Assembly: GCA_001780285.1 (NCBI GenBank)
Contig: MFGN01000005.1
Coordinates: 138,200-202,199 of the forward strand
DNA: 64,000 nt
Direction: 5' to 3'
DNA from: Candidatus Falkowbacteria bacterium RIFOXYD12_FULL_34_57
GTDB taxonomy: Bacteria; Patescibacteriota; Patescibacteriia; Patescibacteriales; UBA12075
In this document: positions 11,914 through 57,580 of the stretch, piece by piece
Position numbering within the stretch: the first letter of the stretch is position 1
Layout: each line of letters starts with the position of its first letter
Position numbers and translations under genes: made by a program
Notes under the pieces: generated by a model
What the model was told of the DNA's origin: nothing
Database searches by the model: none
Seen by the model: the letters and a program-made list of their open reading frames with translations, nothing else

Positions 11914-11914
11914 A

Positions 11915-26040: not shown

Positions 26041-26628
26041 ATGGATAATTTAAACAATAATATTACAACCAATCAAAAAATAGCAGTTGGTCTTTTGTTG
26101 TTTTTTGCTGTTTTGGTTGTTTTTTTGTGGGTAATTCAATTTAGAAGCGGTTTGGGTCTGGGTCGGGAAGCAACGCAAGATAATACTGTTTTAAACGAAA
26201 ATTCATATTCAGTAGATATCAACAAGGATACGGACGGCGACGGACTTTCGGACGCGGATGAATTGAATATTTATAAAACATCCCCATATTTAGAGGATAG
26301 CGATAGCGATGGTTTTTCGGATTTTGAGGAGGTAAACTCCAATAATGATCCGAACTGTCCAATAGGTAGGATTTGTACTACTGCGCCCATAAAAAATGAC
26401 TTGGGTCAGGAATTTTTAAATGAAATGCGGGATGCAGAAGATTTGGTTAATACCGTTATCGAAGAAAGACCAGCACAAGTAGATATGGGTGGTATTTTAA
26501 GCGGAAACAGCGATGCTCAGACCCTTAGAACTTCATTGATTAATGCCGGTTTTGATCCGGAAATGCTCAAACAGATCAGCGACGAAGATCTGCTCCAAGC
26601 TTATAAGGAGATTTTAAGTGAAAAATAA
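26041..26628 (+). CDS. membrane-anchored protein with thrombospondin-type-3-like Ca-binding repeats
   Basis: N-terminal TM (IAVGLLLFFAVLVVFLWVI), then DTDGDGLSDADELNIYKTSPYLEDSDSDGFSDFEEVNSNNDP. Confidence 0.7.
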   Translation: MDNLNNNITTNQKIAVGLLLFFAVLVVFLWVIQFRSGLGLGREATQDNTVLNENSYSVDINKDTDGDGLSDADELNIYKTSPYLEDSDSDGFSDFEEVNSNNDPNCPIGRICTTAPIKNDLGQEFLNEMRDAEDLVNTVIEERPAQVDMGGILSGNSDAQTLRTSLINAGFDPEMLKQISDEDLLQAYKEILSEK

Positions 26629-26715: not shown

Positions 26716-29700
26716 ATGTTCAACAAACCTATTCTTAAATTGATACTGCCGGTAGTTATTATTTTTGTTTTGTTTTTTGGTTCAAGTAGTGTTATTTTGG
26801 CGCAGACAATACAAACAACTGATTGGGAGTCTATTAATACTGAAATAGAGGGTAATGTGCAAAATGAAAAGAATTGGCTTAAGGATTCACTTATGTGGCT
26901 TCAAAATTTTTCTTGGAAAAAGGCTGGTTCGGTGGCTTTTTGGTCGGCTGTAAAAAGCGCTTTGAACCAGATTGCTTATGATACCGCCACTTGGATCGGT
27001 TCCGGCGGCAAAGGACAGAAGCCGATGTTTATTACCGAGGGGTGGGGGGAATATTTAAAAAATATCGGAGATAACGCTGCTGGAACTTTTTTAGAAAGTT
27101 TGGGAAATGAGAATGGCTGGAAAAAGTTTAATCTTTGCAATCCAAGTTCGGATATAAGAATCAAAATAGGATTGGGACTCGTGGACGATTATAGGCCCAA
27201 GAAACCCTCATGTACTTTTTCTAAAATGAAAGAAAATTGGTCTCAGGCCCTAAAAAGCGATAATTTTTTAACCAATCTGCAGAATGCTTTTGATCCGACC
27301 GAGTCTACCTTGATCCAGGCTCTGTCGATTCATACTAGTTTTTGGGGCACTCTGGATCTAAAAAAAGAAGTAGATGGTTTGGATAGGATAGAAAATGAGG
27401 GTTGGTTGGATATTAGCGGTATAGCCGGTACCAGAGAAAATCCGCCGGGACACGCCAAAAGCAAGTTAGAGCAAGCTAAAAGGATTAGGGAGGCGTCTTT
27501 TTCCGAGAACACGGAAGACGCTTTTGAAGATGCTATCAATATATTTTTAAATAAGCTGGCAGTAGAGCTTTTTAATCGTTTACTGGAGTCGTTGGGGAAG
27601 GGCAGTAAATACTCAGGCTCTTATAATTGGAGCGGTTTAAATATTGGCAGCTTGTCGGATTTTTATAGTGAAAACGATTCAGGGGGAGTAGTGGCCGCAA
27701 AAGTAAAATTTAAAAAATTAGTTGAACCGAGTTTTAATGTCCGTGGGGATTATAATATTCTAGCAGAACTTGCTATGTGTCCAGATCCAAACAAGGCCGG
27801 ACCCACTAACTGTGTTATCTCTGAAGAGTTTAAAACCGCAGTGGAAAACAACATGACGGTAGGAGAGGCAATACGTGCCGGCTATCTGGACCCAAGCGGC
27901 ATTTTTGGATTTAATGCTAATGGCATAGAACCTTTGTATAATGAAGGATATCCTTATCGCTCCATGGTAATTTTACGAAAATTCAGAATTCTGCCTGTCG
28001 GCTGGGAACTTGCCGCCCAGTTTATTAAGGATAACCAGCAAATAACAGGCGGAGCGCAGAATTTGGAATATTTAGTAAATTGTTTTGACCCTAACGATGA
28101 TTACGGAAACATTTCACCTGTTTGGTGCCGTGGATTTGTGGACCCGAATTGGGTACTCAAGGCCCCGCTTAATTATTGCGAGCGCTCAGGCCCGGGACCG
28201 GAAATATTGTATCAGACAATAGTTGGTCAGGGGGGCGATAGTAGTTTGGTGGTGAGCAGAAATGATGATTACTGCGCCGATGAGAAAACATGCATAAAAG
28301 AGGAGAATGGAATTTGCAGGCTGTATGGATATTGTACTGAAGAAAAACGAACCTGGAATTTTGGCAATAATTCTTGTCAGCCGGAATTTAATACTTGCCA
28401 GGCTTTTCAGTTTTATCAAGGCAACACTTTTGGTTATCTGGAAAATACTTTAGAATATGGCACTTGCAGTATAGATAATGTGGGCTGCCGGGAATACTGC
28501 GAAGATTATGATTATACCAACTCTAATTACACCTGTAATGTTAGTGCTGGAAATAAAATTTATTTAGATCGCGATGCAGAGGTATGTGATAAGGATTCTG
28601 ATGGATGCAGTGAATTTATCAGAACCAAGCCGGTGGCTAAGGCAAATCTGCTTTATGATTCCAGTTTTGAAACTAATTTTGGAATATCTGGTTTGCCTGT
28701 AGTAAACAGGTTGTGCGACGGCGATATGGTGGATGGTGTTTGTAGTTTGCAGTTGACGGGTGATGTGGCACCTGGTGTGGTTCCGATTTTTGATAGCAGT
28801 AATATTCCCCTGCAGGGAGAAGCATTTACTTTTTCTATTTATGCTAAAAATTGCGGTGATGCCGGCAGGATTTTAATTGGGGGAGATGTAAATTGGAGCT
28901 TGAATCACTCTTCCACCACCCTCTCCACTTCTGACACTTGGCAGCGCTTTAGCGTCAGCCATTTGATGATTCCCGGCACCAATGAGGTGTGGGTGGGTAT
29001 AGAAGATATAATTGATAATGGTAATTGCGCAGGTAACGACTGTTGCCGCATTGATTCTGCTAAAATAGAAAGAGGGGAAGGAGCAAGCCCTTATAGTGAT
29101 TACCGGGAAGAAGGGCTTATATACATGAAGCTTCTGCCTGATTATTTGGAAAATGAGTGTTATGTTAATCCGGGAATGGATTACAGCCTAAAAACCAATT
29201 ATCCGGAAGTTTGTGATAATTATAATCGCAAGTGCAATGAAGAGGAATGGGGCTGTGATCTTTATACTTCTATTAAAAATAAATTATCTGTTCCGGCTAT
29301 TACCAAGGCGATGGATTATTGTACGGAAGAGTGTCTTGGATACGATGAGTATTTACAGATGGAATCTCTTTTTGAATCAAAAAATTTGCAATATTTTATT
29401 CCAAAAACTGCCAGAAAATGCAGCGCAGGAGCCGAGGGGTGCAGTGAATTTACTAATTTAGACACTATTCAAGAGGGGGGAGAGAATAGGGAATATTACA
29501 AACACCTTCGAAGATGTATTCGTCCAAATGATCCATTTGCAAATTGCAGCGAGTTTTATACTTGGGAAGGATCATCCGAAACAGGTTTTCAATTGAAAGT
29601 TCATGTTTTACAAGTAGACGAAGACGCAGACGATGTAGTTGGTGTGGATGGTATGTATACCGGAGATCCTGATGTAATAGAAGGGGATCAGCTTGTTTGC

Positions 29701-32700
29701 AATCAAGCTATATATAATTTGCCGGCCACGGATCCTGGATACAATGAGGATTGTTTGGAATATTATAATACAGCCGGAGAAGTTTCTTATCATGTTAATA
29801 GTAACACCATATCTTGCACAGAAAATTGCCACCCTTATAGAAAAACGGATAATAATGTGGTGCGGGATCCGGTTTCAAATAATCATTATACCCAGATTCA
29901 ATGTGAAAATCTTTCAAAGTATCCGGGCACATGGATAGATATCAGTAGAAATTTTTATTTGGATGCCGATCCAACCAATGATCAATGCGTATTTTGCAAA
30001 GCTGATGGCGTATGGAGCAATGAACATGGCAAATGTCTTTATATGGCCATACCAAATGAGGGAATAAAATGTTCGGCTTCGCAAAGCGGTTGTAGGGAAT
30101 ATAGTGGAAGTGAAGGAAACAATGTGCGTATTGTTGCGAATGATGATTTTGAAGGAAGTTTAAATAATTGGGAAGGATTTGGCGGCAGTTCGGTCTTGGT
30201 TGACAGTGAATCATTGATAGTAGGAGGGGAGTCGCTCAAAGTAACTGGCGGTTCAATTAAAAAGACAATAAATGCCTGGAATAATAGATCATACATGTTG
30301 ACATTTTTAGCTAAAGAAGACACTTCCACCGGAAATGAGGCTCAAAATTTTACTTCCGTAAGATTTGATAATGTGTCTTTGTTTGCCCCATTGCCAACAG
30401 TAATAAACGCCGGTTGGAGTCTATATAAATTTAATTTAGATATAGCCACTTCAGCCAAAGAATTGATTATAGTGGCTGATGGAGATTTTTTCATTGATAA
30501 TATTAGGTTAACGGAAATTTCAGATCGTTATTTCTTAATTAAAGATTCATGGAATACCCCGAATTCCTGCTATAATGACATTTTTGGGAATTACAGAGGA
30601 CCAACTTTTAATTTGGGGTGTGATGCTTATACTGATAAAGCGGGAGATGTGCATTTTTTGCATAGTTTTTCCGAGCTTTGCCAGGAATCGGCAGTGGGCT
30701 GTGAATTGATGATTGATACTCATAATTACAGCAGTTTTGAGGCGGGAATTTGGAATGATCAAAATTCAGATGGGTTTTGCACTGTTATTGATGGACAAGA
30801 TTGTGAATATATAGAGGGTGATAGTTTGATTTATGCGGTTTATAATGAAGATCATGAGTGTAATAACGATGAAAAAGGATGTCTGCGTATCGGAGAACCT
30901 TATTTTTATGCGGGAGACGTGGTTTATACGGATAAATATCTGGAAAATAATCCAGATCAATATACAAACATTTTGTGTAATGAAGATGGATCCGGATGTG
31001 ATGAATGGCTGACGGGTAAGGGAATATCTTATTTTAAATATCCAGAAGATCAGGTTTGTGAGTGGAGGCAGGAAGGGATAAACGGTATTAATGTTTGGGA
31101 TTGGTATAAAAAGAAAATAAAAAGATGTGATGATGGCGCGGGTACCGGGGTAGTAAACGGCAAAATAGATGTGGGTGGCGCCGGTTTGCCAGAAGAAGCT
31201 AGTATTTGCTTGCGAAACAGTAATTGTGACGATAATGGTTTTGCATGTACTGAAAATAAGGACTGTAGAATGCAGGCATGTGTTGCCGGTGTGTGTTCTG
31301 CAACTCGCGAGGCTTGTATAAATAATGATCAATGTCCTATTTTGGGAAGTTGTGAAAATAATTTGTGTCACTATTCTTGTATTCAGGATACAAATAATTA
31401 TGATTGTGTTTTGGATATTGATTCGGGTGTACCGGGTAAAACCTTGGGTCATGGGGGGGGTAATGAAAAAGTGGGACAACCAACAAACAGTTTGGATGGA
31501 AACTGGGTAGGTCTTTGCCCCGTGTCAGATTCTGGATGCACGGAATATATTGATCCGATTTCTAGAGAATCTATCAACGCAGTCTTTAACGGAGATTTTT
31601 CTCAGGATATAAATGGTGATAGTTTAGCCGATGGCTTTAACGGTGCTGGACAACAGGAACTAACACTTAAACCAAGCACACCCTATATATTGTCAATCGA
31701 AAGTAATAGTTTAAGTGTGACTGCGAGTTTGAATAGCACTAATAATGACCTTGTTCCGTTTAATGAAACCAACAATAGATTTTTAAATGCTACCCCCAAT
31801 ATTAGCGTTGTTAATGTTATTGGTGAAAGAAATAGTATTTTATTCTACACCTCAGAAGGTTTAAATGATACGGTCACTCTCACGTTAAGCAGTATAGCTA
31901 CCGGCAACAATACTAAAGTGGGAATAAGAAAAGCACTTGTAAAGTATTCCCTTGAACAAGGTTTAGATAAGACATCGTGTAATGGGGGAGTAAGTTTTGA
32001 GCAAGGATGCGTTTTGTTTAATGAAAGAAAAGTTACAGGTGGAAATGGTTTAGGCAGCTTTAGTTATAAAAGTTTGGGATATGATGCAGACAATAGTCCG
32101 AATTTGAGTAATGGACCGGAAGACTGTCCTTTGGGTGGATGTGATTCAAATGTTATATTAAAGGTAGCACCAGACAGGGTGTGTGATCAATGGTTGGCTT
32201 GTAAGAGTTATATCCATGACAAAAACGGCAATCCAGAATGTTTTGACATCGGGCTCTGCAATAGTGTGAATGACAATGGTTTCTGTAATAGTTTTATTAA
32301 TGAAGAGGACAACACATTACAAGTAATAGGTCTTGGTAACCCTATTGATAAATATCAAAATGTTTCTGGCTATGTAAAAGTTGGTATGTCCAGCGCAAGT
32401 GAAGAGGGAATGAAGGGAACATATAAATTTAATAACATGACGCAAGAAGGATCCACCACCCTTGTTCCCAATGGAAGTTTTGAAGATATTGGCAATAATA
32501 AATATCCTATAGCTTGGGTAATGAAAGATAATACCGGCGGTAGCGTATCATGGGGTGATCAAATGATGCGCGTTATTGATAATCCGGCGGAAATGCAGAA
32601 TGAAGGCATAAGCCATGTTCCCGAGGGAAGAAATTTCTTAAAGCTTGGTTCTATATATAAAGCGGTTTCAGAAAACATAGATGTTGTCAGCGGAGCGGAA

Positions 32701-35271
32701 TATTTTGTCTCCGGACACATAAATACTTTAAAATTATCGGGTGGTACTGCTAAAATAAAAGTAATAGGTGGCTTAGGCAATAATGAAATATTGGTAAATA
32801 ATGGTTTGGATTGGACATTTGGTATGCGCAAATTTACAGCTTTGGGAAATTTGCTTTCCATTGAGCTATATGCCGAACTTCCTGGAGGAGGAGAGCCTGT
32901 GGGAAATTTTTTCTTTGATAGTATTCGTTTAACTCCGGCGCTTAAAATTAGGGATACTTCATATGTGTCAAAGAGCTGTCGGTTGTATCCTCAAAGTGAT
33001 TCTATGTCATGTGAATATATTACCGATTCAGGCGCTCGCGAGAAAGGGTGGTATGGATATTGTCTTGAATACGATCGTTTTCCGGGCAGTGAAAATACCT
33101 GCCTTCAGTGGTGGCCGGTTGATCGGGTAGAGGGAGAAGGTATAGAGGGTGACTATGGATATCTGGATTCTTTCCCGCTTTATTATTGTCAAGAAGCATA
33201 TACTAATCGGCCGGTTGAAAGACGAAGACTGAGAAATGCTTCTTCGGACATAGTTTGGGGAGAATGCAATAGCGGATGTCTGAATACGGAGTACAATTGC
33301 CCGATAGGATATAGGCGCAGATTGGAATTGATTGATCCTGGCCAGTGTCCCAGTGACGGAAAAAAGTTCATTATTTGGACAATTGACGAAGGAACCCCGG
33401 GTTATAATTCGCAATGCACTCCTACATGTGTAGCTGATGGCGCAAGATATTTGACTACCGAAGACGGACAATATGGATGGTATGATTATTTAAACGGTAT
33501 AATGGATGCCACGGAGGTGGTGGTGTATGGTGATATAACAATTATGATTCCGGCTGAAAATGGAGTTAGATTTTTTAATCCGACTACGAATGTAATTACC
33601 GATGATATAGCGGATTGCTTGCAGGTTACCCAGGTAGTAACTCCTAGCGGCCAAAATAAGTACTGGAGCGGAAGAGTGTATGAGAATAGTAATTATTTTG
33701 TAAATGGCGTTGGTGCCATGGCTGATCTTGGTTATTCTTATGATACCCCCAATTCTCCATTTGGTTCCATGATGCCTCCCGAGCCGCTTAGTAATCCGTA
33801 TGAATGGTCCCGTTCAACCCAAAGACCAGTACCTGTGTCTATACCCCCTAATTCAGATAGGGCGAATGCCGGATATCCTTATAGTTTAAGCGGTGGCGTA
33901 GTTTTTCCCGGTTCTATTTACGGGATTTGTAGCGGATCCAGAACAATGTGTATCAGTCCCGCTACACCTGGCAGTAAGTACGACTGCAAATTCGGCGAGG
34001 TTTGCAATTCATTTCCGAATCAATCTCCTCTTAATGCGATTGATAATTTAAAAAGGTTGTATGCTAAGAATTATGGCACTTGGGTTTGGGACGAAAATTT
34101 AAACAGATATATATTAAGGGCCTTTGCCTCTGTCACGCAGGGAAATTGCAGTATTAGCGGTTTACCATGTAATTTTAATGAATGCGGTGTGCAAAATTGC
34201 ACATTTGATACAACCAGAAGCACCTGTAATGGCGGCACAGCGTCCGGTGCAGAGTGTACTAATAATTGCGTGGGCGTCGGTTGCGGGATATCATTTACAA
34301 TTCCTCTGTTTGCCTGTTCCGATAATCCGAACATGAATTGCTGCGCCGGTGCTTCACAGGCAGTGGCTACTTGCGGCGTAGGAGAAGATTGTTTATTGAC
34401 ATACGGCGGAACTTTCCGATGCGAATTTAGCGGCAACTATTGCAATCCGGTGTCGCCGGGGAATGGTTTTGTTTGTACTGGCGGAGCCAATATTGGAGAT
34501 ATTGTGCCTCAGGCGAGCTGCAGTGCCGGTTTTTGTAATCCGCTTGGCACAAGCAGAACTTATAATGTAAATGCTTGCGATATCGCAGCGCCTGCACCCA
34601 ATGCTTTTTTGCAACGCTGTTGCCCTGGCGGTAACTGCATTCCGGAAAATATATATACCTGCGGAGCATTATCACTTGCGCTTGGCGGACAACAATGTTT
34701 TCAATGTCCGGACGGGGGACACTGTGTTATTCAAAATAATCCCGGTGCTCAAAACAACCTTTGGGGTCCCCCAGGAACAAATGGAGAGCCCAATAATGGC
34801 TTGTGTGTCGGCGGTGTTAGAAATATAGATGATTATTGCGCGATACTACCTGTGATAAACAATAACAATATAAAAGTAAATGGAGAAAATGTTGCATTAA
34901 CCATTCAGGAAGAATTTAAATTTGTAAATTTAACCTTTAATAGCGATGTTGATGAGAATCAATTACCCATGGTTATGTATGCTGTTGATTGGGGTGATGG
35001 ATCGGCCACCAATATTTCCGGAGCAGAAATGATAGAAAAGCCAAATGCAGACAACCCGCACTCTTTATATCACCTATATGATTATTGGAATATGAAAAAT
35101 AAATTACCATCATGTGGAGGAGGTCTTGTTGTTAATTGTTGTTTTTCTGATCATTGCGTGATTCAGCCGAGAATAAAAATAAAAGATAATTGGGGGTGGT
35201 GTAATCATGGCGTAAATATTAACGATTGTTCTCATTGGGATTTTCGTCCGATCATCACTATTTATGAATAA
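26716..35271 (+). CDS. giant (2851 aa) secreted/anchored cysteine-rich multidomain surface protein
   Basis: Uninterrupted 8.6-kb ORF with an N-terminal signal/anchor (LILPVVIIFVLFFGSSSVILAQT). About 130 Cys by manual count. Four Cys-poor jelly-roll/CBM-like modules (N.DFE/NGSFE openings, ...IDNIRLTE/FDSIRLTP endings). Recurrent C-x-E-[YFW] motifs and a C-terminal PKD-like YAVDWGDGS. Confidence 0.9.
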   Translation: MFNKPILKLILPVVIIFVLFFGSSSVILAQTIQTTDWESINTEIEGNVQNEKNWLKDSLMWLQNFSWKKAGSVAFWSAVKSALNQIAYDTATWIGSGGKGQKPMFITEGWGEYLKNIGDNAAGTFLESLGNENGWKKFNLCNPSSDIRIKIGLGLVDDYRPKKPSCTFSKMKENWSQALKSDNFLTNLQNAFDPTESTLIQALSIHTSFWGTLDLKKEVDGLDRIENEGWLDISGIAGTRENPPGHAKSKLEQAKRIREASFSENTEDAFEDAINIFLNKLAVELFNRLLESLGKGSKYSGSYNWSGLNIGSLSDFYSENDSGGVVAAKVKFKKLVEPSFNVRGDYNILAELAMCPDPNKAGPTNCVISEEFKTAVENNMTVGEAIRAGYLDPSGIFGFNANGIEPLYNEGYPYRSMVILRKFRILPVGWELAAQFIKDNQQITGGAQNLEYLVNCFDPNDDYGNISPVWCRGFVDPNWVLKAPLNYCERSGPGPEILYQTIVGQGGDSSLVVSRNDDYCADEKTCIKEENGICRLYGYCTEEKRTWNFGNNSCQPEFNTCQAFQFYQGNTFGYLENTLEYGTCSIDNVGCREYCEDYDYTNSNYTCNVSAGNKIYLDRDAEVCDKDSDGCSEFIRTKPVAKANLLYDSSFETNFGISGLPVVNRLCDGDMVDGVCSLQLTGDVAPGVVPIFDSSNIPLQGEAFTFSIYAKNCGDAGRILIGGDVNWSLNHSSTTLSTSDTWQRFSVSHLMIPGTNEVWVGIEDIIDNGNCAGNDCCRIDSAKIERGEGASPYSDYREEGLIYMKLLPDYLENECYVNPGMDYSLKTNYPEVCDNYNRKCNEEEWGCDLYTSIKNKLSVPAITKAMDYCTEECLGYDEYLQMESLFESKNLQYFIPKTARKCSAGAEGCSEFTNLDTIQEGGENREYYKHLRRCIRPNDPFANCSEFYTWEGSSETGFQLKVHVLQVDEDADDVVGVDGMYTGDPDVIEGDQLVCNQAIYNLPATDPGYNEDCLEYYNTAGEVSYHVNSNTISCTENCHPYRKTDNNVVRDPVSNNHYTQIQCENLSKYPGTWIDISRNFYLDADPTNDQCVFCKADGVWSNEHGKCLYMAIPNEGIKCSASQSGCREYSGSEGNNVRIVANDDFEGSLNNWEGFGGSSVLVDSESLIVGGESLKVTGGSIKKTINAWNNRSYMLTFLAKEDTSTGNEAQNFTSVRFDNVSLFAPLPTVINAGWSLYKFNLDIATSAKELIIVADGDFFIDNIRLTEISDRYFLIKDSWNTPNSCYNDIFGNYRGPTFNLGCDAYTDKAGDVHFLHSFSELCQESAVGCELMIDTHNYSSFEAGIWNDQNSDGFCTVIDGQDCEYIEGDSLIYAVYNEDHECNNDEKGCLRIGEPYFYAGDVVYTDKYLENNPDQYTNILCNEDGSGCDEWLTGKGISYFKYPEDQVCEWRQEGINGINVWDWYKKKIKRCDDGAGTGVVNGKIDVGGAGLPEEASICLRNSNCDDNGFACTENKDCRMQACVAGVCSATREACINNDQCPILGSCENNLCHYSCIQDTNNYDCVLDIDSGVPGKTLGHGGGNEKVGQPTNSLDGNWVGLCPVSDSGCTEYIDPISRESINAVFNGDFSQDINGDSLADGFNGAGQQELTLKPSTPYILSIESNSLSVTASLNSTNNDLVPFNETNNRFLNATPNISVVNVIGERNSILFYTSEGLNDTVTLTLSSIATGNNTKVGIRKALVKYSLEQGLDKTSCNGGVSFEQGCVLFNERKVTGGNGLGSFSYKSLGYDADNSPNLSNGPEDCPLGGCDSNVILKVAPDRVCDQWLACKSYIHDKNGNPECFDIGLCNSVNDNGFCNSFINEEDNTLQVIGLGNPIDKYQNVSGYVKVGMSSASEEGMKGTYKFNNMTQEGSTTLVPNGSFEDIGNNKYPIAWVMKDNTGGSVSWGDQMMRVIDNPAEMQNEGISHVPEGRNFLKLGSIYKAVSENIDVVSGAEYFVSGHINTLKLSGGTAKIKVIGGLGNNEILVNNGLDWTFGMRKFTALGNLLSIELYAELPGGGEPVGNFFFDSIRLTPALKIRDTSYVSKSCRLYPQSDSMSCEYITDSGAREKGWYGYCLEYDRFPGSENTCLQWWPVDRVEGEGIEGDYGYLDSFPLYYCQEAYTNRPVERRRLRNASSDIVWGECNSGCLNTEYNCPIGYRRRLELIDPGQCPSDGKKFIIWTIDEGTPGYNSQCTPTCVADGARYLTTEDGQYGWYDYLNGIMDATEVVVYGDITIMIPAENGVRFFNPTTNVITDDIADCLQVTQVVTPSGQNKYWSGRVYENSNYFVNGVGAMADLGYSYDTPNSPFGSMMPPEPLSNPYEWSRSTQRPVPVSIPPNSDRANAGYPYSLSGGVVFPGSIYGICSGSRTMCISPATPGSKYDCKFGEVCNSFPNQSPLNAIDNLKRLYAKNYGTWVWDENLNRYILRAFASVTQGNCSISGLPCNFNECGVQNCTFDTTRSTCNGGTASGAECTNNCVGVGCGISFTIPLFACSDNPNMNCCAGASQAVATCGVGEDCLLTYGGTFRCEFSGNYCNPVSPGNGFVCTGGANIGDIVPQASCSAGFCNPLGTSRTYNVNACDIAAPAPNAFLQRCCPGGNCIPENIYTCGALSLALGGQQCFQCPDGGHCVIQNNPGAQNNLWGPPGTNGEPNNGLCVGGVRNIDDYCAILPVINNNNIKVNGENVALTIQEEFKFVNLTFNSDVDENQLPMVMYAVDWGDGSATNISGAEMIEKPNADNPHSLYHLYDYWNMKNKLPSCGGGLVVNCCFSDHCVIQPRIKIKDNWGWCNHGVNINDCSHWDFRPIITIYE

Positions 35272-36760
35272 AAACTCGTTTGAAAAAATAAAAACAAGCT
35301 ATAAGTTACCAATAATCTCCGGTGTTTCAGCTGCTTGTTCTTTGTTGTTCGGTTTTTTTGACTACTTTATTTTTGTTGGTTTGGTACCGTTTTTTTTGTT
35401 TGTTTATTACGAAAAGAGCTTAGTCCGTCTATGGCTGGGCTCTTTTTTGTTTTATTGTATTTTTAATACCATGCTTGGTTTGTTCGTAGTGATTGAGCCC
35501 CTTAATTGGATATTAATGGGATTATTATTTGGGTTTTATGGCATTATGCTTGGTTTAACAAAAAAATATTTTTCGCCTTGGTTTTTTTGGTTTCTGACGC
35601 CGGTTTTATTTGTGTTGCTGGAATATGGATTTAATGTTTTTAATTATATACCCGGTCTTCCTTTGGCTTTGGGTAATACTCTTGGTTCTACTATTTTTCT
35701 GCCCTTGGCTAGAATTGCCGGGGTGTGGGGACTTGGCCTAGTGGTCTTTATTGTAAATTTACTGGTTTGTAAAATTATTATTGATTGGAAAAACAGAAGA
35801 AAGTGGTTTTTTATAATTATTGCCGTATTGGTGTTTTTGGTTTCGCTTAGCGGTGTTTTGTGGATACAAGCTAAAAATAAAAAACTGGCTGATAATATAA
35901 ATTTAGCGGTAATTTCTTTTTCTACCAAAGTTATAGAAAACAGTCCGGAATATAAAGAGTTGGGAGCAAGTATGGCTTATGCTGACAGTGCAAAAGTAAA
36001 TATTTTTTTAGAAAAAATTACCAAGGAAATAATAGGAATAATACCTGAGACGGCTGATTATGTTTTTTTGCCCACGCATATTTTTAATAGTACCAGAGAA
36101 AATGAAATAGAAAGCGAAGTATTTAGTGAATATGGCATCAATAATAACGGATCTATAATTGTTTTCGCACGCCAATTGGCTAAAATTTTAAATAAAAATG
36201 TTATTACGGGAATAGTTACCCGGGAATATGGGAAAAAGTATAATTCGGTTTTGTTTTTTGATAGAAATGGTAATTTGGTGGATATTTATCATAAGACAAA
36301 TTTGGTTATTGGCTCAGAATATTGGCCATTTGGCGATTGGGTGCCGTTTTGGATGTATTGGTTGAGCGGAGCTAAACCGGGACAAAAATTATATATTAAA
36401 TCCGGTTTTTCGCGCAGCGAAACTCCGTTTTCTGTTTTAAAATCTGAGAATTTAAATATTGGTGTTTTGATTTGTTCGGAACCGCGGATACCTGGTAATT
36501 TTGTAAAAACAAAGAGTAATAAAGCGCAGATTGTTTTTACTCCGGTAAATAATGATTGGTATTATGGTTTGGGTATCGCCTTTTTTCAAAAAAAGTATTT
36601 TAATACTTTGAGAGTAAATTCTGTTTATCACGATATTCCGATTATAGTAAACGGCAAAGAAAATTATGCAGGAATAATTTATCCGGATGGGGAATATGAC
36701 ATTGTTAAGCCTGAAAAAGATCAGAAATTTAATGTTTGGTCTGGGTCGCTGAAATATTAG
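35264..36760 (+). CDS. apolipoprotein N-acyltransferase-like protein (polytopic N-domain plus CN-hydrolase domain)
   Basis: About 6-8 TM helices followed by a nitrilase-fold region with YHKTNLV...PFGDW and IGVLICSEP (Lnt K and C positions). ATG overlaps the giant-gene stop by 8 nt (ATGAATAA). Confidence 0.65.
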   Translation: MNKNSFEKIKTSYKLPIISGVSAACSLLFGFFDYFIFVGLVPFFLFVYYEKSLVRLWLGSFLFYCIFNTMLGLFVVIEPLNWILMGLLFGFYGIMLGLTKKYFSPWFFWFLTPVLFVLLEYGFNVFNYIPGLPLALGNTLGSTIFLPLARIAGVWGLGLVVFIVNLLVCKIIIDWKNRRKWFFIIIAVLVFLVSLSGVLWIQAKNKKLADNINLAVISFSTKVIENSPEYKELGASMAYADSAKVNIFLEKITKEIIGIIPETADYVFLPTHIFNSTRENEIESEVFSEYGINNNGSIIVFARQLAKILNKNVITGIVTREYGKKYNSVLFFDRNGNLVDIYHKTNLVIGSEYWPFGDWVPFWMYWLSGAKPGQKLYIKSGFSRSETPFSVLKSENLNIGVLICSEPRIPGNFVKTKSNKAQIVFTPVNNDWYYGLGIAFFQKKYFNTLRVNSVYHDIPIIVNGKENYAGIIYPDGEYDIVKPEKDQKFNVWSGSLKY

Positions 36761-36798: not shown

Positions 36799-36826
36799 AA
36801 AAAACTTAAAATTTTAAGTTTTTTTG
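36799..36826 (+). terminator. rho-independent terminator
   Basis: aaaaacttaaaattttaagttttttt: a palindromic stem followed by a T-run. Confidence 0.6.
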
Positions 36827-36853: not shown

Positions 36854-36883
36854 TTGGAAAATATATCTAAAATGTGTTATAAT
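36854..36883 (+). promoter_or_regulatory. promoter P2 of the envelope locus
   Basis: TTGGAA (36854-36859), 18 nt ending in AAATGTGT, TATAAT (36878-36883). Confidence 0.5.
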
Positions 36884-36917
36884 TATAATAACATTTTAAG
36901 TTTTTTGTTTTGTGCAT

Positions 36918-37403
36918 ATGTCTAATAATGACCAAGAATTTGACGAGGAAGAAGCGGCTGACAGGCTGCAGCAGGAAAAGAATAAAAGTCAAAGCGCTTT
37001 AAAGGAAGTGGTGGCGGATGTGGCTACGGCGCCGGTCAGAATAGGGACAAGTAATTTATTGCGCAGCGCCTGGTTGTCCTTTTTTAGTGTTGTCGGCTTT
37101 ATATTTATCGGTTTGCCCTATATCAATCTGCATGCTTTCGGGCATTTTATTATGCCGAGTTTTTTTGCTAATTTGGGAGAAGAATGGGTGCCCGGGAGCG
37201 TCAAACAGTTTGCCGGAAGCCTGGGACAGGGAAGCATTTGGCTTACTATTATTGAATGGATTGCATTGATTGTTTTGGATATTGCAGTTTTGATTATAAT
37301 TATAGTAAGTTTAATGACTATTTTTATAATATTTGATATAGCACATGGGTGGTTTGGGTTTTTTCTTGACATATATTTAAAATTAAAAGGAGCTGTGAGC
37401 TAA
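36918..37403 (+). CDS. hypothetical membrane protein (acidic N-terminus, 3-4 TM)
   Basis: ATG at 36918 (track starts at GTG 36912). Hydrophobic segments SAWLSFFSVVGFIFIGLPYI and WLTIIEWIALIVLDIAVLIIIIVSLMTIFIIF. Confidence 0.6.
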   Translation: MSNNDQEFDEEEAADRLQQEKNKSQSALKEVVADVATAPVRIGTSNLLRSAWLSFFSVVGFIFIGLPYINLHAFGHFIMPSFFANLGEEWVPGSVKQFAGSLGQGSIWLTIIEWIALIVLDIAVLIIIIVSLMTIFIIFDIAHGWFGFFLDIYLKLKGAVS

Positions 37404-37419: not shown

Positions 37420-39978
37420 ATGAATAAAGTAAAAACAATTTTAAAAAGCAAGAATTTCAGAGTGTTTGTAATACTTTTAGTGTTTTGCTTTGCTTTTTTT
37501 ATATTTTCCAATATCGTTAGTGCACAAGAAGGTATAAGTGATTCTTGGATGAGAACAAGCCAAACATCACCAACTTCAACGCCAGACCCATTAGATTGGG
37601 TTAAGGGTAAGTTATTGGTCGGACTCGCCTGGGTAGTGTATGCCTTTGTGTGGGTTATCGGCCTTTTATTTATTTTTATTACCTTTTTATTGTCAAAGGT
37701 GGCAGCTTATAACAACTTTATTAATGTACAGACTGTTTCTATTGGATGGGGGATTGTGCGGGATCTGTGCAATATGTTTTTTATTTTGATTTTACTTGTA
37801 ATCGCTTTTGCCACAATTCTGCGGGTGGAGAGTTATAACGCTAAAAGGCTTCTGCCTAAGCTTTTGATTATGGCCGTATTAATCAATTTTTCCAAAATGA
37901 TCTGCGGCTACATTATAGATTTTTCTCAGGTGATTATGTTTACTTTTGTTAGTATTCTGGATAGCGGTAATAGTTGGAACAAATTACCGGAATTATTAGG
38001 TATAGATAAAATTATTGAAATAGTAAAAAATGGAAACGAAAATCCGGATTTTTCAGTTGGTGGAATAGAGGTAGTTGGATCATTAATAGCCGCTTTAATG
38101 GTTATGGTTGTGGCTTTTGCAGTAGTTTTGGCGATGTTGGTGATGCTTATTTTTAGGATTATTATGCTATGGGTATATGTAATCCTCTCCCCGATTGCTT
38201 TTTTAACAGCTACATTTCCAGCCGGACAAAAATACTCTTCCCAGTGGTGGGGCGAGTTTATGAAGCAGGTGGTTACCGGTCCGATTCTTGCTTTTTTCTT
38301 GTATTTAGCGCTCACCACCCTAGAAACTTCTCTTTCTACCACCCTATCTATTCAAAATAGTAATTTTGTCAGTAAATTTTCTACCGGATTCTGGGAGCCT
38401 GCTATGTTTCAGACTTATGCTATAACCCTAGCCCTGTTGGTTGGTGGACTGGTTGTTACTCAGCAGGCCGGGGGAATAGCCGGAAATATCGCCGGAAAAG
38501 CCCTGGGTGGCGCCAAAGGTGTGATCGGAAAGTATAGCGGAGCTAGAAGGGCAAAAGATCTGTACGGCAGATGGCAGAGCGAGAGGAAAGCGAAGATGGA
38601 GATGGCGGATCAAAAGAGATATGCTTCTCTTAAAACAATGGCTCAAGCTCCCGGTGCGGCACTTTCAGGATTGAGAAGAGCTGTAAGTCCGCCAACAACC
38701 CAAAGAACAGAAAAAGAAAAGATAAAGCATCGCGAAACGCAAAGAAAGAGAGAGGCAGAAGAACATATATTTAGCGCCTTAGAAAATTTACGAAACAGAA
38801 AAACCGGTGAGACATATACAAAAGGGGGATATACATATGAAAAAACTTCCGGAGTTTTGGGTGCGGGTATCAAGATAACGGATGCTAGCGGTAAACAGGT
38901 TGGTAGGGAAAAGAAATTTAAGAGTTTGGATTATAAAGCCGGATATAGAGATAAGATGAGTTCAGCTGCTCAAATCAAAGATAGTATTATGTCGAAAGAA
39001 ATAAACGAGGAGAAATCAAATATGCAGCATCTTTCGGGCGCTGAAATCAGGCAGATTGCTGCAAGCTCCGCCACGCCGCAAAAGAGAAAAATGGCAGCCT
39101 CTATGCTAGTGTCTGAAAAAGAGGCTTTTAGTAGTCAAGAACATTTGCAGAGCATGAAAAGCAATATTGAGAAAATTCCTACCCTACTTAAACAATTCAA
39201 TGAATCCGCCGATAAAAGCTATGGAATATGGAATAATAGCCGGGAAACATTTGAAGCAAAAGTTTCCGATGGTACTATTAATGTGGAGCGTTTAGACACA
39301 TCACAGCTGACAGCTGGCGTATTAGATCAAATACGAAACACGGTCGGCGCTGTTAAATATGGTAAAACCCTGGAAAATATGGGTAGAACCAAGGGGGATG
39401 CCGACAAGATAAAAGAGGTTTCACAGGAAAAGGTTAATGAACTTAACAAGAATCAGGATTATAGCGAAGAAGCTATGACCCACAGGCTGTTTAATGCCAG
39501 AAACTCAGGAAGCTTCATTGAATCAATGGACAGTATGGCATCTTTTCATAGCAACAAAAAAGCTCAAGAGGAAACAGGAAAAGCCATTGGCAGTGCCAAG
39601 GGTATTCATCTGGCAAAATTAAAAGAATTTAATTTTGATGCTGAAAAGGCAAAAGAGAATTATAAGAAAGAAATAGAGAGCGGGGTTATAAAGACAGATG
39701 ATATAGAGAATAGTATAGACGCTTTTAGAAAGCAGTTTCAGAATAATATCAGCGTTGCCCAATTGGATAGCGCCATGAAATCAGGAGAAGCAAATAATAA
39801 TCAAATGAAACAATTGGTACGCACCGCATATGCCAGCGGCAGAAAAGAAATTATGGATGGAATTATAAAGAATAATAATTTAAAATCTTTATTAAACGAA
39901 GAGCAATTAAGAGAGAAGAAAGAAGAAAAAAAGAATAAAGATAAAGAACCGCAGGGACCAGAAGCTGTACTAGTATAA
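37420..39978 (+). CDS. VirB6/TrbL-like polytopic T4SS channel protein with long hydrophilic C-terminal tail
   Basis: Signal peptide (FIFSNIVSAQEG) and about 7 TM helices over residues 60-370. Motif context resembles TrbL/VirB6 and PrgH/TcpH-type proteins. About 470-aa Lys/Glu-rich tail. Located in the T4SS gene neighbourhood. Confidence 0.5.
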   Translation: MNKVKTILKSKNFRVFVILLVFCFAFFIFSNIVSAQEGISDSWMRTSQTSPTSTPDPLDWVKGKLLVGLAWVVYAFVWVIGLLFIFITFLLSKVAAYNNFINVQTVSIGWGIVRDLCNMFFILILLVIAFATILRVESYNAKRLLPKLLIMAVLINFSKMICGYIIDFSQVIMFTFVSILDSGNSWNKLPELLGIDKIIEIVKNGNENPDFSVGGIEVVGSLIAALMVMVVAFAVVLAMLVMLIFRIIMLWVYVILSPIAFLTATFPAGQKYSSQWWGEFMKQVVTGPILAFFLYLALTTLETSLSTTLSIQNSNFVSKFSTGFWEPAMFQTYAITLALLVGGLVVTQQAGGIAGNIAGKALGGAKGVIGKYSGARRAKDLYGRWQSERKAKMEMADQKRYASLKTMAQAPGAALSGLRRAVSPPTTQRTEKEKIKHRETQRKREAEEHIFSALENLRNRKTGETYTKGGYTYEKTSGVLGAGIKITDASGKQVGREKKFKSLDYKAGYRDKMSSAAQIKDSIMSKEINEEKSNMQHLSGAEIRQIAASSATPQKRKMAASMLVSEKEAFSSQEHLQSMKSNIEKIPTLLKQFNESADKSYGIWNNSRETFEAKVSDGTINVERLDTSQLTAGVLDQIRNTVGAVKYGKTLENMGRTKGDADKIKEVSQEKVNELNKNQDYSEEAMTHRLFNARNSGSFIESMDSMASFHSNKKAQEETGKAIGSAKGIHLAKLKEFNFDAEKAKENYKKEIESGVIKTDDIENSIDAFRKQFQNNISVAQLDSAMKSGEANNNQMKQLVRTAYASGRKEIMDGIIKNNNLKSLLNEEQLREKKEEKKNKDKEPQGPEAVLV

Positions 39979-40025: not shown

Positions 40026-40730
40026 ATGATTGATAATAATAAACAATTAAAAGATGAAATTTTTGATTTATTTCAGGAAAACTTAGTTGATGTTTTGCAA
40101 TTTGATGATCAGGATTTATTGTATGATTTAAATGATGATATTATTGACATCATTGTTTATGATAATATTTTTAAAAAAGAATTAGAAAATTCTCTTTATA
40201 AAAGCAGCGCTAAATTAACCAATAAAGAACTCCTTTTAGATGGTGATGCCCACATACCCAATGTTCAAAATTGGCTCAGTGATTTTATAAAGCAATATGG
40301 AAGCGGTTTTTTTGATAATGTTACATTATCCCGTTATATTACTTTTTCAGAAAATGTCAAAAAACTAGATGAAAATGAGAAAAATTTGGTTAAAAAATTG
40401 CTGCAGCTATACAGAAATTTAAAATTTTTTCCGGATAGCATGAAAGATATTCCTGTTGATGACTGGGAGATTGTTCCGATAGATAAATTTGTTGTAAAAA
40501 AACACTCCGAATTAAGCGGACCGCCAAAGACAAAGGGAGAAAAAGAAATTGAGAAGCTTAGACAGGAAGAAGGTGATTACGCGGAAAATAGTTTAGAGAG
40601 AAAAATGCTTGAAGAAGAAGTAGAAAAGAAAGAACAAATAGAAAATTTGCAATCAGAGGCAAATAAATATCCCCAAGGAAGCTTGGAAAAAAAGGCACTG
40701 GAATCGGAGATTAAAAAATTATTGAAATAG
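40026..40730 (+). CDS. hypothetical protein with C-terminal coiled-coil repeats
   Basis: ORF only. The C-terminus repeats ENSLERKMLEEEVEKK / QGSLEKKALESEIKKL. Confidence 0.55.
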   Translation: MIDNNKQLKDEIFDLFQENLVDVLQFDDQDLLYDLNDDIIDIIVYDNIFKKELENSLYKSSAKLTNKELLLDGDAHIPNVQNWLSDFIKQYGSGFFDNVTLSRYITFSENVKKLDENEKNLVKKLLQLYRNLKFFPDSMKDIPVDDWEIVPIDKFVVKKHSELSGPPKTKGEKEIEKLRQEEGDYAENSLERKMLEEEVEKKEQIENLQSEANKYPQGSLEKKALESEIKKLLK

Positions 40731-40801
40731 GGTAGAAAATAATTTTACATTTTAACTTGTCATTTTAATTTTTGATGTTTGCATTTTGATATTTATTAAT
40801 T

Positions 40802-42355
40802 ATGATTAATTATTTACAACAATTTAAAGAATTGCCGGCAGGCGTGAAAAGAAATATTTCTTCTCCCGATGTAATGAAAGAGGTTGAAATATTGGAAAAA
40901 GAATATGGAATTAGTTTAGCCACTTTAATAATGCGCGTCATGGTAAAGAATATAAAATTTGTGGATTTGGTAAGATATTTTATTTTTGAAGAAAATTTTA
41001 ATATTGAAAAAGCTGAAAAATTAGTAGAGGAACTCAGGGAAAAAGTTTTTAAGAATTCTTTGGTATATTTAGGAGTAGAACAAAGTGTTTCACCTGAAAT
41101 AGATGAAATAGAAATTGGAGGTAGGGAGGCCCTTGATGAAAAACTTAATATTATTGAAATAAATGAAGAAGAAGCGTTGACCCCAAAAAAGAAAGAAGCA
41201 GAATCCGCAGTACAAGGTTCAGATTTTTTCTTTTCTCCGGAAGATGAAGAAGAGGTGAAAAATCTGGCTCAGGCCCTGCAGCATACAGATAAGAGGGAAG
41301 ATCATAAAAGTAATTTGAAAAATCAGGTTTTAAATATAATGAATCAGATGAATATTAGCTTTAGTTCAGATGATGTAAAAGCTAGGTGTGAGAAGGCTAT
41401 AAATACATATTTGAGGGGTGTACGAAATAAAATAGATACAAGACAAACACTCGCTCGAGCTGTGCATCTTGGAGGGGTGGGTCTCCAAGAAGAGGAGATA
41501 GACAAAATATTTTCAATATCTGATAAAGTAAAATTTTCAGAAACGCATGATTATACATTGTTAAAACATGACAAAAAAGATGAATATGAAAAAGAAAAAT
41601 TAAAAAATATCGGTGCCCGTGATGCGGCTTATGATTTTAGTAAATTAGCAGAAAAGTCAAAAGATCAAAAAGTTAAATTGAAAGTCGATGGTCAAGAGTT
41701 GAAGGTTTATAAAACTGAAAATCAAAAAAAACTAGTTACTCCAGAGGAGGCGGTAGAAATTCGTGACAAGACAAATAATAATGATAAGGCAGAGCAAGTT
41801 CAGGTTAAAAATATTGAAATATTAAATTCTGTAAAAAAAGAAACGGATAAACAGGAAGATTTGTCTCCAAGAGAAAAAATAGCACTACAGCCAACAAATG
41901 AACCTCGGATTGAAATTTCTCCTGTTAGTGAACACAGTGAAATGGTCGGTGGGGGGAATATTGCCAGCGTCAGAAAGATGTCGGCGGGTGATGGAAAAGT
42001 AAAAATGGAAGATGTGAAATTTGTTCCTAAGCTCTTGGGACCAATTGAAGAATTAAAAGAAATAGATTTAGTTAATTTTAGACGATTAGACTCTGATCCA
42101 AATAAGGCTATATTTAAAATTAATAATAAAATCAAATTTTTAGAAGAAGAATCTTTTGCTAAAAGACTTGCGGGTATAAAGGCGTGGAGGCAAAGTAAAA
42201 TTAATACCCTATATTTAAATATGGGCAGAGAAAGTATCAACATCCAGAAGCCAATAGAAGATATCATTAATATTAGAAAAAATAATAATCAGGAATATTT
42301 AACCATTGAAGAATTTTCAGCAGTAATGGATTTGAATAAAGGTTTAAGATTCTAG
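40802..42355 (+). CDS. hypothetical protein (517 aa, charged/low-complexity centre)
   Basis: ORF only; no recognised motif. Confidence 0.55.
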   Translation: MINYLQQFKELPAGVKRNISSPDVMKEVEILEKEYGISLATLIMRVMVKNIKFVDLVRYFIFEENFNIEKAEKLVEELREKVFKNSLVYLGVEQSVSPEIDEIEIGGREALDEKLNIIEINEEEALTPKKKEAESAVQGSDFFFSPEDEEEVKNLAQALQHTDKREDHKSNLKNQVLNIMNQMNISFSSDDVKARCEKAINTYLRGVRNKIDTRQTLARAVHLGGVGLQEEEIDKIFSISDKVKFSETHDYTLLKHDKKDEYEKEKLKNIGARDAAYDFSKLAEKSKDQKVKLKVDGQELKVYKTENQKKLVTPEEAVEIRDKTNNNDKAEQVQVKNIEILNSVKKETDKQEDLSPREKIALQPTNEPRIEISPVSEHSEMVGGGNIASVRKMSAGDGKVKMEDVKFVPKLLGPIEELKEIDLVNFRRLDSDPNKAIFKINNKIKFLEEESFAKRLAGIKAWRQSKINTLYLNMGRESINIQKPIEDIINIRKNNNQEYLTIEEFSAVMDLNKGLRF

Positions 42356-42537: not shown

Positions 42538-42990
42538 ATGCAACAATTTACGGTCCCACAATTTATAGATGTTGAAGATAAAATTATTGGTCCGATTACC
42601 ACCAGACAGTTTTTGATTATGCTTGCCGGTTGTATGTTGGTTGCCATTTTGTATAAATTATTAGATTTTACCGCATTTTTAACATTCTCCGTGCTTATTT
42701 TTGCCGTTTTTGGCTCATTGGCATTTTTTAAAATCAATGGCATGGCTATGCATTTTTTTATTCTTAATTTTTTAGAAACATTAAGAAAGGCTCCCAAGCG
42801 CGTATGGGATCACACCAGAAAAAAAGAATGGGGAAAAGAGATTGAAGATGATATAAAAATAGAAATAAAGGAAATCATACCAGTAAAAGAATTCAGCGGT
42901 TCTAGGCTTGGTGAATTATCTTTGATTGTGGATACTAGGGGAATGTATAGGGGGGAAGGAAGGGAAAAGGTAAAAGAGTTGGATTTATAG
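42538..42990 (+). CDS. PrgI/VirB3-like small T4SS membrane protein
   Basis: N-terminus MQQFTVPQFIDVEDKIIGPITTRQFLIML followed by two TM helices, as in PrgI-family proteins encoded upstream of VirB4 in Gram-positive-type T4SS. Confidence 0.6.
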   Translation: MQQFTVPQFIDVEDKIIGPITTRQFLIMLAGCMLVAILYKLLDFTAFLTFSVLIFAVFGSLAFFKINGMAMHFFILNFLETLRKAPKRVWDHTRKKEWGKEIEDDIKIEIKEIIPVKEFSGSRLGELSLIVDTRGMYRGEGREKVKELDL

Positions 42991-43157: not shown

Positions 43158-43841
43158 ATGGCTCAGAATAAATTAGTGAGAAATAAAATTTCGTCTTCTA
43201 CCCAGGAATATCTGGATATTGCTGAAATTAAAGAAGATACGGTAATAATGAGAGATGGCACCCTGCGCAGCGTAATACTTGTTTCAAGTATAAATTTTGC
43301 TTTAAAAAGTGAGGATGAACAAAATGCTATAATTGCCGCCTATGTAGGATTTTTAAACAATATAGATTTTCCCCTGCAGATAGTGATTCAGTCCCGCGAA
43401 TCAAATATAGAAAATTATTTAAATAGTTTAAGGCAAAAAGAAAAAGAGCAGACTAATGAGCTTTTAAAAATGCAAATTGGGGAATATTTGCAGTATATTA
43501 ATGAACTTATTGCTATGAGCAAGATAATGAATAAAAGATTTTATGTAGTGGTTCCGTATAACCCCATGACAGATAACCAGAAGAATTTTTTTTCTAGAGT
43601 TTTGGATGTATTTAAGCCGGCTACTATTATAAAAATGAAAACATCATTATTTGAGCATAGAAAAAAGGAATTGAGTAAAAGAATAGACAATATTATGTCC
43701 GGTCTTAGTTCTATCGGCCTTAATGCCGTGCCGCTTGATACACAAGGACTGATAGAATTGTATTTTAATTCATATAATCCGATTACTTCAGCTAATCAAA
43801 ATTTAACAGATGTAAATCAATTAAGAGTAGAGAAAGACTAA
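43158..43841 (+). CDS. VirB4/TrbE N-terminal-domain-like protein (separate ORF)
   Basis: EYLDIAEIKEDTVIMRDGTLRSVILVSSINFALKSEDEQNAIIAAYVGFLNNIDFPLQIVIQS resembles the N-terminal domain of VirB4/PrgJ ATPases. Located directly upstream of the ATPase ORF. Confidence 0.55.
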   Translation: MAQNKLVRNKISSSTQEYLDIAEIKEDTVIMRDGTLRSVILVSSINFALKSEDEQNAIIAAYVGFLNNIDFPLQIVIQSRESNIENYLNSLRQKEKEQTNELLKMQIGEYLQYINELIAMSKIMNKRFYVVVPYNPMTDNQKNFFSRVLDVFKPATIIKMKTSLFEHRKKELSKRIDNIMSGLSSIGLNAVPLDTQGLIELYFNSYNPITSANQNLTDVNQLRVEKD

Positions 43842-57569: not shown

Positions 57570-57580
57570 TTCCTTTTATT

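Follow-up and report, generated by a model that had tools for sequence, protein, structure and literature searches.

The window examined here, a stretch of 64,000 nucleotides (nt) of contig MFGN01000005.1 from Candidatus Falkowbacteria bacterium RIFOXYD12_FULL_34_57, carries a gene for a membrane CN-hydrolase resembling apolipoprotein N-acyltransferase (Lnt), located directly behind a gene encoding a giant secreted protein; the two genes head a type IV secretion system (T4SS) cluster. Judged from sequence comparison, the Lnt-like gene is a lineage-specific derivative of an Lnt-like family of Patescibacteria, and the replacement of the first catalytic Glu in its product is, by the same comparison, more than chance. 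Tentatively, the product can be considered an Lnt-derived accessory of a module formed by the giant surface protein and the T4SS, with a reactive Cys404, an altered acyl chemistry, and an acceptor without a lipobox; the probability of a docking role without catalysis is only slightly lower. Neither the fold nor the T4SS is new as such; the literature searched did not contain the Glu-less clade, the coupling to the giant gene, or the placement at a T4SS locus. The features on which the argument turns are the following:

26716-35271, plus strand: gene of the giant secreted protein, 2,851 amino acids (aa), ending with the TAA codon at 35269-35271
35264-35271, plus strand: overlap junction ATGAATAA, 8 nt common to the start of the Lnt-like gene and the end of the giant gene
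35264-36760, plus strand: Lnt-like membrane CN-hydrolase gene, 498 aa, ATG start; product 100% identical to the NCBI entry 'hypothetical protein A2331_06670'

Fold of the Lnt-Like Protein and Its Relation to Lnt

The initial annotation had described a polytopic N-terminal domain followed by a C-terminal nitrilase fold, the architecture of Lnt, and on this point Pfam, the AlphaFold2 model and Foldseek agree. The Pfam CN_hydrolase domain (PF00795) is matched with E=6e-14 (52.4 bits; gathering score, 23.2), LNT_N (PF20154) with 21.5 bits, under the cut-off of 27.1, and the NCBIfam model TIGR00546 (lnt) with 85.7 bits, under the equivalog cut-off of 132.9. A phmmer search of the PDB with the single sequence gave no match; a profile of the 54-sequence family matches Pseudomonas aeruginosa Lnt over its full length (E=6e-23) and also Escherichia coli Lnt (HMMER, PDB). 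The AlphaFold2 model, built on the alignment of the same 54 sequences, has a mean predicted local distance difference test score (pLDDT) of 94.8 and a predicted template modelling score (pTM) of 0.93. It comprises seven long transmembrane (TM) helices (aa ~14-204), followed by a nitrilase domain with the alpha-beta-beta-alpha arrangement (aa ~210-498); according to the model, this domain is outside the cell, positioned by the seven helices. The best 24 matches of the model in a Foldseek comparison with the PDB are all Lnt (TM-score 0.65-0.71, about 15% identity), and the soluble nitrilase-fold enzymes rank after them. The two-domain fold of Lnt is thus present, despite the sub-threshold LNT_N score.

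With the canonical enzymes of E. coli and P. aeruginosa (PDB 5N6H, 5N6M, 8B0L; TIGR00546; EC 2.3.1.269) the protein shares this fold along its whole length, together with the equivalents of Lys335, Glu343, Cys387 and Glu389 and the N-D-x-W motif. It differs from them in the substitutions of Glu267 by Thr, Tyr388 by Ser (Ser405), His425 by Lys (Lys442), and Ser411 by Asn, in an arm following the Glu strand that is 14 residues longer, in the lack of C-terminal helix 8, in its score below the TIGR00546 equivalog cut-off, and in its genetic setting, an overlap with a giant non-lipoprotein gene in a T4SS cluster. As a member of Lnt proper the protein consequently falls short in four respects: the E-K-C triad, the equivalog score, the Tyr388 and His425 equivalents, and helix 8. 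It belongs to the nitrilase superfamily (PF00795) by its hidden Markov model match and its alpha-beta-beta-alpha sandwich, and has the Lys, second Glu and Cys in common with it; of the Glu-Lys-Glu-Cys tetrad only the first Glu is gone.

The model ends in a beta-strand, leaving seven TM helices as opposed to eight in canonical Lnt. A C-terminal hydrophobic segment is found in none of the seven members of the Glu-less clade described below, as against 78% of the more distant, canonical homologues; helix 8 is also lacking in most of the surrounding Lnt-like family from the Candidate Phyla Radiation (CPR). In the Patescibacteria family (P0012-P0073; e.g., L006, L011, L016) the lack of the eighth TM helix was noted as a family-wide trait.

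Active Site: The Lost Glu and the Retained Residues

T271, in the motif YVFLPTHIF, aligns with the catalytic Glu of Lnt (E267 of E. coli) in three independent alignments: a MAFFT alignment of 159 near-full-length homologues, an alignment of the HMMER family profile with P. aeruginosa Lnt 5n6m (DLvvLPE against DLIVWPE), and an hhalign comparison of the six closest sequences with 12 canonical Lnts (probability 99.3%). In the model, the strand formed by residues 266-268 ends at this site. Among the 159 homologues the column is occupied by Glu in 146, Lys344 is present in all 159, Cys404 in 158, Glu352 (Glu343 of E. coli) in 156, and Glu406 in 155; the protein encoded in the window retains all four of the latter, Lys344 in YHK344TNLV and Cys404 in LIC404SEP. 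The by-eye assignment of the retained Lys (YHKTNLV) and Cys (VLICSEP), now K344 and C404, is therefore borne out by alignment, as is the replacement of the first catalytic Glu within F-L-P-T-H. The triad is not intact, and this loss holds over a monophyletic clade: in the query and the six 50%-identity representatives closest to it the Glu column reads T, T, T, G, A, G, N. The seven share 33-55% identity with one another, yet none departs from Cys404, Lys344 or Glu406, and Glu352 varies only between E and D.

In E. coli Lnt the E267Q substitution abolishes activity; proton abstraction is the role proposed for Glu267, assisted by His425, and Glu343, Tyr388, Glu389 and His425 are essential or conserved residues of the active site (PMC5500888). 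E267, K335 and E343 are required for the thioester intermediate (PMC8048626). Since E267Q inactivates the enzyme and proton abstraction is assigned to Glu267, canonical Lnt chemistry is not expected in the Lnt-like protein, and classical N-acylation of diacylglyceryl-Cys lipoproteins is presumably no longer performed by it.

The clade-specific substitutions around the active-site strand are Tyr266, Phe268, Arg278, His343, Ser385 and Ser405. A search for a replacement general base in the clade-specific columns near the motif revealed no conserved Asp, Glu or His except His343, which flanks Lys344 on the strand. Three individual candidates were rejected: the His of PTH varies across the clade (H/N/S/N/N/N/D), Glu279 is Lys in P0009 and L014, and the acid at position 281 also occurs in Glu-bearing relatives and hence is not compensatory.

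The Glu-Less Clade within the Patescibacteria Lnt-Like Family

An exhaustive HMMER search of 1.84 billion representative proteins yielded 68 at E<1e-10 and 317 at E<1e-3. The Glu-less clade consists of seven 50%-identity representatives among the 1.84 billion, all metagenomic, and is monophyletic in 100 of 100 bootstraps of a Kimura-distance neighbour-joining tree. It is nested in a Patescibacteria Lnt-like family otherwise bearing LPE, whose named members come from Sungbacteria and 'Patescibacteria group' metagenome-assembled genomes. The six-sequence clade alignment contains 77 invariant columns, and intact full-length open reading frames (ORFs) of the Lnt-like gene are present in at least eight independent metagenomic lineages. 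In five of 53 other CPR family members the Glu has been independently replaced by Q or D with the Lys and Cys kept, which hints that the Glu is less indispensable in the CPR family than in canonical Lnt. A general homologous-protein search was of low sensitivity, giving 8 matches for the Lnt-like protein, and its profile version returned mostly canonical Lnts and none of P0009-P0073.

The Glu-bearing CPR proteins (e.g., P0012, P0014, and P0020 from Candidatus Sungbacteria, QQG45653.1) are 24-32% identical to the Lnt-like protein over the full length. They have in common with it seven TM helices without helix 8, the SEYWPFG and NNG motifs, and Tyr388 and His425 equivalents that are already changed; they differ from it in keeping LPE and in being encoded by stand-alone genes in housekeeping, pilus or polysaccharide neighbourhoods.

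The CPR family as a whole departs from the canonical near-invariant positions elsewhere as well: Gln is replaced by Gly at query position 147, a Leu or Ser takes the place of Tyr388, and the RA(I/L)E helix is altered at its Arg and Glu. Even the Glu-bearing CPR proteins may, on these substitutions, not be orthodox Lnts.

Coupling to the Giant Gene

The end of the giant gene, ...TAT GAA TAA, contains the ATG at 35264 as the ATG of TATGAA, with the TAA at 35269-35271; the overlap proposed in the initial annotation is thus read directly in the sequence as the 8 nt ATGAATAA. No Shine-Dalgarno-like sequence is found upstream of this ATG. The start at 35264 is considered correctly placed because the N-terminus, MN(K/R)... 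with T11, Y13, L15 and S19, is kept across homologues. Translational coupling of the two genes by termination-reinitiation is probably the natural reading of the junction; the co-translation that had been suggested from the overlap gains from the recurrence of the 8-nt junction in relatives and from the conserved start.

The database entry P0002, 87% identical to the Lnt-like protein of the window, bears an N-terminal extension, MAYILTIVLIGIFVRSSLF. This extension is what results when the DNA of the window preceding 35264 is translated in the Lnt frame and its TAA codon is given as Tyr; it looks like a gene call under a non-standard genetic code, not a real variant.

The giant protein, presumed to be a partner or substrate of the Lnt-like protein, has a cleavable-looking signal of the signal peptidase I type (…SSSVILA/QT, the slash marking the cut), and 130 Cys residues (4.6%), the first at about residue 141; it contains neither a lipobox Cys nor a Pfam domain. 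The orthologue in L002 also lacks a lipobox, so that none of the two full-length orthologues has one, and for this reason classical N-acylation of the giant protein is unlikely. Both the missing lipobox and this consequence had been noted at the outset, and both stand. A scan of about 55 ORFs of the window revealed no lipobox protein, which is weak evidence, as a 64-kb sample has little power; its single match was a spurious antisense ORF inside the Lnt-like gene. Neither lgt nor lspA, nor a second Lnt-like gene, was seen in the 64-kb window.

Conservation of the Arrangement in Relatives

The synteny statistics rest on 13 contexts; with the six-sequence clade alignment, a GTDB scan yielded only 3 loci and a JGI metagenome scan only 2. 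Six of the seven clade representatives are located directly behind orthologous giant genes, four of them, the window locus included, with the 8-nt overlap. The adjacency, for which a check across related genomes had been proposed, therefore recurs in five representatives besides the query, 33-51% identical to it, three of them with the overlap. In L001 (Lnt-like protein 51% identical) the gene order is the same and the junction is again ATGAATAA; L010 (50%) has the same order and, by gene coordinates, the 8-nt overlap; in L002 (47%) the junction is ATGAATAG and one extra gene is inserted downstream. A gap of 17 nt follows the giant gene in the P0009 locus (43%), and one of 2 nt in L008 (34%). 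The giant orthologues align over their full length with identities of 63, 59, 43 and 39% in L001, L010, L002 and L008, respectively, and the TSP3 repeat protein gene upstream of the giant gene (see below) is kept in L002 and in the P0009 locus. The genes of five Glu-bearing relatives (P0012, P0014, P0018, P0020, L004) stand alone in unrelated neighbourhoods, in no case behind a giant gene.

A strict tie between Glu loss and the giant gene was considered and rejected, given the Glu-less and not giant-linked P0010 and L014. As the giant-linked P0011 is basal to these two in the neighbour-joining tree, the simplest account is that the clade's ancestor already had the linkage to the giant gene, which was probably lost once.

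A membrane protein of 530-570 aa with a spermine/spermidine-synthase domain (L007 868-2469, L014 752-2431, L006 5470-7188) turns up repeatedly beside or close to Lnt-like genes without giant linkage (P0010, L014, P0012), a neighbourhood which, from its recurrence, may be the ancestral setting of the family.

The Type IV Secretion Cluster and Its Transcription Signals

The gene array surrounding the Lnt-like gene reads, in order, TSP3, giant, Lnt-like, orf163, VirB6, orf234, orf517, PrgI, TrsD, VirB4. Apart from the two genes listed above, the cluster and the signals in it are as follows:

25976-26005: promoter-like site just upstream of the TSP3 gene, the best of the region (11/12, TG-extended)
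26041-26628, plus strand: small N-terminally anchored protein with bacterial thrombospondin type 3 (TSP3, calcium-binding) repeats, first gene of the putative TSP3-giant-Lnt-like operon
35411-35457, plus strand: terminator-like hairpin of 15-17 bp, followed by a run of U, within the Lnt-like gene (147 nt after its start codon)
36799-36824 (approximate): AT-rich hairpin after the Lnt-like stop codon and before the next promoter-like site
36854-36883: promoter-like site ahead of orf163
36912-37403, plus strand: conserved 163-aa protein with three hydrophobic segments (3-TM), always next after the Lnt-like gene
37420-39978, plus strand: VirB6/TrbL-like polytopic protein, 852 aa, seven TM-like segments
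40026-42355, plus strand: two soluble proteins conserved in the cluster, function unassigned (orf234, 234 aa; orf517, 517 aa)
42538-42990, plus strand: PrgI/VirB3-like protein (PF12666, E=4.7e-8)
43158-43841, plus strand: TrsD/TraC-like protein, akin to the N-terminal part of VirB4 (weak TraC_F_IV match)
43971-45881, plus strand: VirB4-type T4SS ATPase (P-loop_TraG 8e-27, AAA_10)
46092-46745: 217-aa protein
46787-47557, plus strand: membrane-anchored DsbA-like thiol-disulfide oxidoreductase, cluster end

The VirB6-like protein of the window has no Pfam match itself, and its L001 orthologue (56% identity) carries PF19590 TrbL_3; similarly, an orthologue of the TrsD/TraC-like protein at 91% identity is flagged PF26593 TraC-like. 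The DsbA-like oxidoreductase closing the cluster fits an extracytoplasmic, disulfide-rich giant product. A second TSP3-repeat protein is encoded at 23133-24095 (minus strand), so that with the gene at 26041-26628 (plus strand) TSP3-repeat genes flank the start of the giant-gene unit.

Patescibacteria T4SSs are related to the MPF-FATA conjugation systems of monoderms (Quinonero-Coronel et al. 2025, PMC12102498), and the window locus resembles them in that virB4 is chromosomal and has TrsD, PrgI/VirB3 and VirB6 nearby; no relaxase domain turned up in Pfam-type scans of the window ORFs. The same survey detected no adhesins such as PrgB of the MPF-FATA systems, and lists no Lnt or CN-hydrolase component (PMC12102498). 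The Lnt-like gene is thus not a recognised T4SS component, and it is in the pair of giant and Lnt-like genes, an undescribed accessory module of a sub-lineage, that the window locus differs from the surveyed systems; the giant protein is a candidate adhesin of the T4SS module. In the only genetically tractable Patescibacteria species the T4SS was reported to be essential for epibiotic growth (summarised in PMC12102498). The literature searched held nothing relevant on Lnt in Patescibacteria or CPR bacteria, nor on giant Cys-rich partners of T4SSs.

The positions of the promoter-like sites and of the AT-rich hairpin suggest that the TSP3-giant-Lnt-like unit is separate from the T4SS core, with the qualification that the site counts are not above shuffled expectation in this AT-rich DNA. 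The hairpin at 35411-35457 is the strongest terminator-like element in the region (dG -18.3 kcal/mol, z=-5.1). It is present in L001 and L010, and its pairing covaries (88% paired, 5 pairs changed on both sides, 0 of 500 shuffles, in only 4 sequences). The earlier statement that no terminator intervenes between the two genes accordingly holds at the 8-nt junction itself, the terminator-like hairpin coming 147 nt further on, inside the Lnt-like gene. From its sequence and position, the hairpin may be a leaky terminator or attenuator setting the ratio of giant to Lnt-like protein, at which most giant transcripts would end and from which the Lnt-like protein would be made by read-through.

Possible Functions of the Lnt-Like Protein

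In the tentative reading as an accessory enzyme, the Lnt-like protein, which is made from the same message as the giant protein, probably by termination-reinitiation at the junction, would be kept by the intragenic hairpin at a much lower level than the giant protein, and would serve the module of giant protein and T4SS as a dedicated lipid-handling accessory. Transfer of an acyl chain from membrane phospholipid to Cys404 most likely would still occur; with the acidic Glu gone and the clade-specific Arg278 gained, the thiol may be more acidic and need less assistance from a base. The chain would then pass to a non-lipobox acceptor, either the giant protein, to which it would give a membrane tether, or another envelope molecule. 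A reactive Cys404 is favoured because Cys, Lys and Glu406 are invariant, and the second Glu is E or D, in a fast-evolving protein; the retention of Lys, Glu2, Cys and Glu in all seven members despite the low identity between them supports the accessory role.

Several observations weigh against this reading. Position 271 varies within the clade (T/G/A/N) and is not accompanied by a conserved acid or His that could compensate; an inactive site would explain both equally well. A specific acceptor site cannot be pointed to, and the two giant orthologues have dissimilar mature N-termini (QTIQ… and AGGIK…). The sub-branch of P0010 and L014 (Gly) is Glu-less and yet located behind a membrane spermine-synthase-like gene instead of a giant gene, so that Glu loss and giant association are not strictly linked. 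Finally, the Lnt-like protein is 51% identical to its L001 orthologue, as compared with 90% for VirB4 and TrsD and 63% for the giant protein, and this faster evolution is compatible with relaxed constraint.

Hence the possibility, only a little less probable, that the protein is a pseudoenzyme in which the Lnt fold serves as a non-catalytic polytopic membrane dock, chaperone or lipid-binding platform for holding or assembling the giant protein beside the T4SS, and the retained Lys, Glu2 and Cys serve structure or ligand binding only. The catalytic Glu has given way to chemically inert, variable residues, there is no equivalent of His425, the clade-specific columns offer no compensating residue, and the corresponding E267Q change inactivates E. 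coli Lnt (PMC5500888); the fast evolution relative to the T4SS core and the stoichiometric-looking coupling to the giant gene point the same way. What speaks for catalysis instead is the strict conservation of Cys404, Lys344 and Glu406, with Glu352 as E or D, in seven of seven members at 33-55% identity, since a free Cys in a surface pocket is seldom retained for structure alone; moreover, the five of 53 CPR members that exchanged the Glu for Q or D and kept Cys and Lys indicate that the Glu may be less critical here.

That the protein is a housekeeping Lnt with a tolerated active-site variant, placed behind the giant gene by operon packing in a small genome, is unlikely. The clade members do bear the name 'apolipoprotein N-acyltransferase' in IMG, the Glu-less P0010 and L014 are in a housekeeping-type neighbourhood like that of the Glu-bearing P0012, and the window offers no second Lnt-like gene. 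However, the protein scores below the TIGR00546 cut-off (85.7 vs 132.9), lacks the catalytic Glu, the equivalents of Tyr388 and His425, and helix 8, and carries at position 271 a loss of the residue whose E267Q exchange kills E. coli Lnt (PMC5500888); in addition, the overlap junction and the entire array are kept down to 34% identity of the Lnt-like protein (L008), a setting in which none of the five Glu-bearing relatives is found, and the ~55 window ORFs include no lipobox protein, weak as this last evidence is.

Patescibacteria rely on their hosts for lipids and many building blocks. Against this background the protein might be the lipid-transfer part of an apparatus by which a lipid-auxotrophic CPR bacterium contacts its host, positioned there by the giant adhesin and the T4SS, an idea that is rather improbable. 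In one version of it, acyl chains from phospholipids, possibly host-derived, would pass through Cys404 to the symbiont's own lipids; in another, the giant protein would be lipidated at a non-cysteine site; in both, the substrate or a partner would supply the missing general base.

A decaying gene, a relic heading for loss, would account for the lost catalytic residue and the fast divergence, and is nevertheless highly improbable in view of the intact full-length ORFs in at least eight independent metagenomic lineages, the model's pLDDT of 94.8, the 77 invariant columns, and the conserved start and overlap.

Other Features of the Window

Upstream of the cluster, the leucyl-tRNA synthetase gene at 18063-21656 (plus strand, 1,197 aa) contains an inserted serine-hydrolase/alpha-beta-hydrolase domain (aa ~577-751, PF06821, 1.5e-12), an insertion unusual for this enzyme, and also a weak Ham1-like segment at aa 249-321. 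At 6941-12493 (minus strand) an AcrB-type resistance-nodulation-division (RND) transporter (1,053 aa, E=1.8e-199) is accompanied by a membrane-fusion protein resembling HlyD and by a TetR regulator; the set is like that of a tripartite pump, and the CPR genome carrying it is presumed to be monoderm. A large ORF at 59555-63223 (plus strand, 1,222 aa) without a Pfam match is located downstream of genes for an extracytoplasmic function (ECF)-type sigma factor and a DUF5667 protein (57009-58665, plus strand); from this arrangement, the latter two may form a sigma/anti-sigma pair that regulates a surface protein.

Implications

The locus offers two co-travelling candidates, a disulfide-rich secreted protein of ~2,800 aa and an Lnt-fold protein with a remodelled active site, which bear on the function of CPR T4SSs and their accessory parts. 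The general importance may be limited, as the clade is small and represented in metagenomes only. If the Lnt-like protein is active, Lnt chemistry would extend beyond lipobox lipoproteins and the general-base Glu of nitrilases would be dispensable; an inactive Lnt-like protein would instead exemplify a pseudoenzyme derived from Lnt and recruited as the partner of a surface protein. Should the less probable role in host contact prove true, the locus would represent a new route of protein lipidation or lipid scavenging built on an Lnt scaffold.

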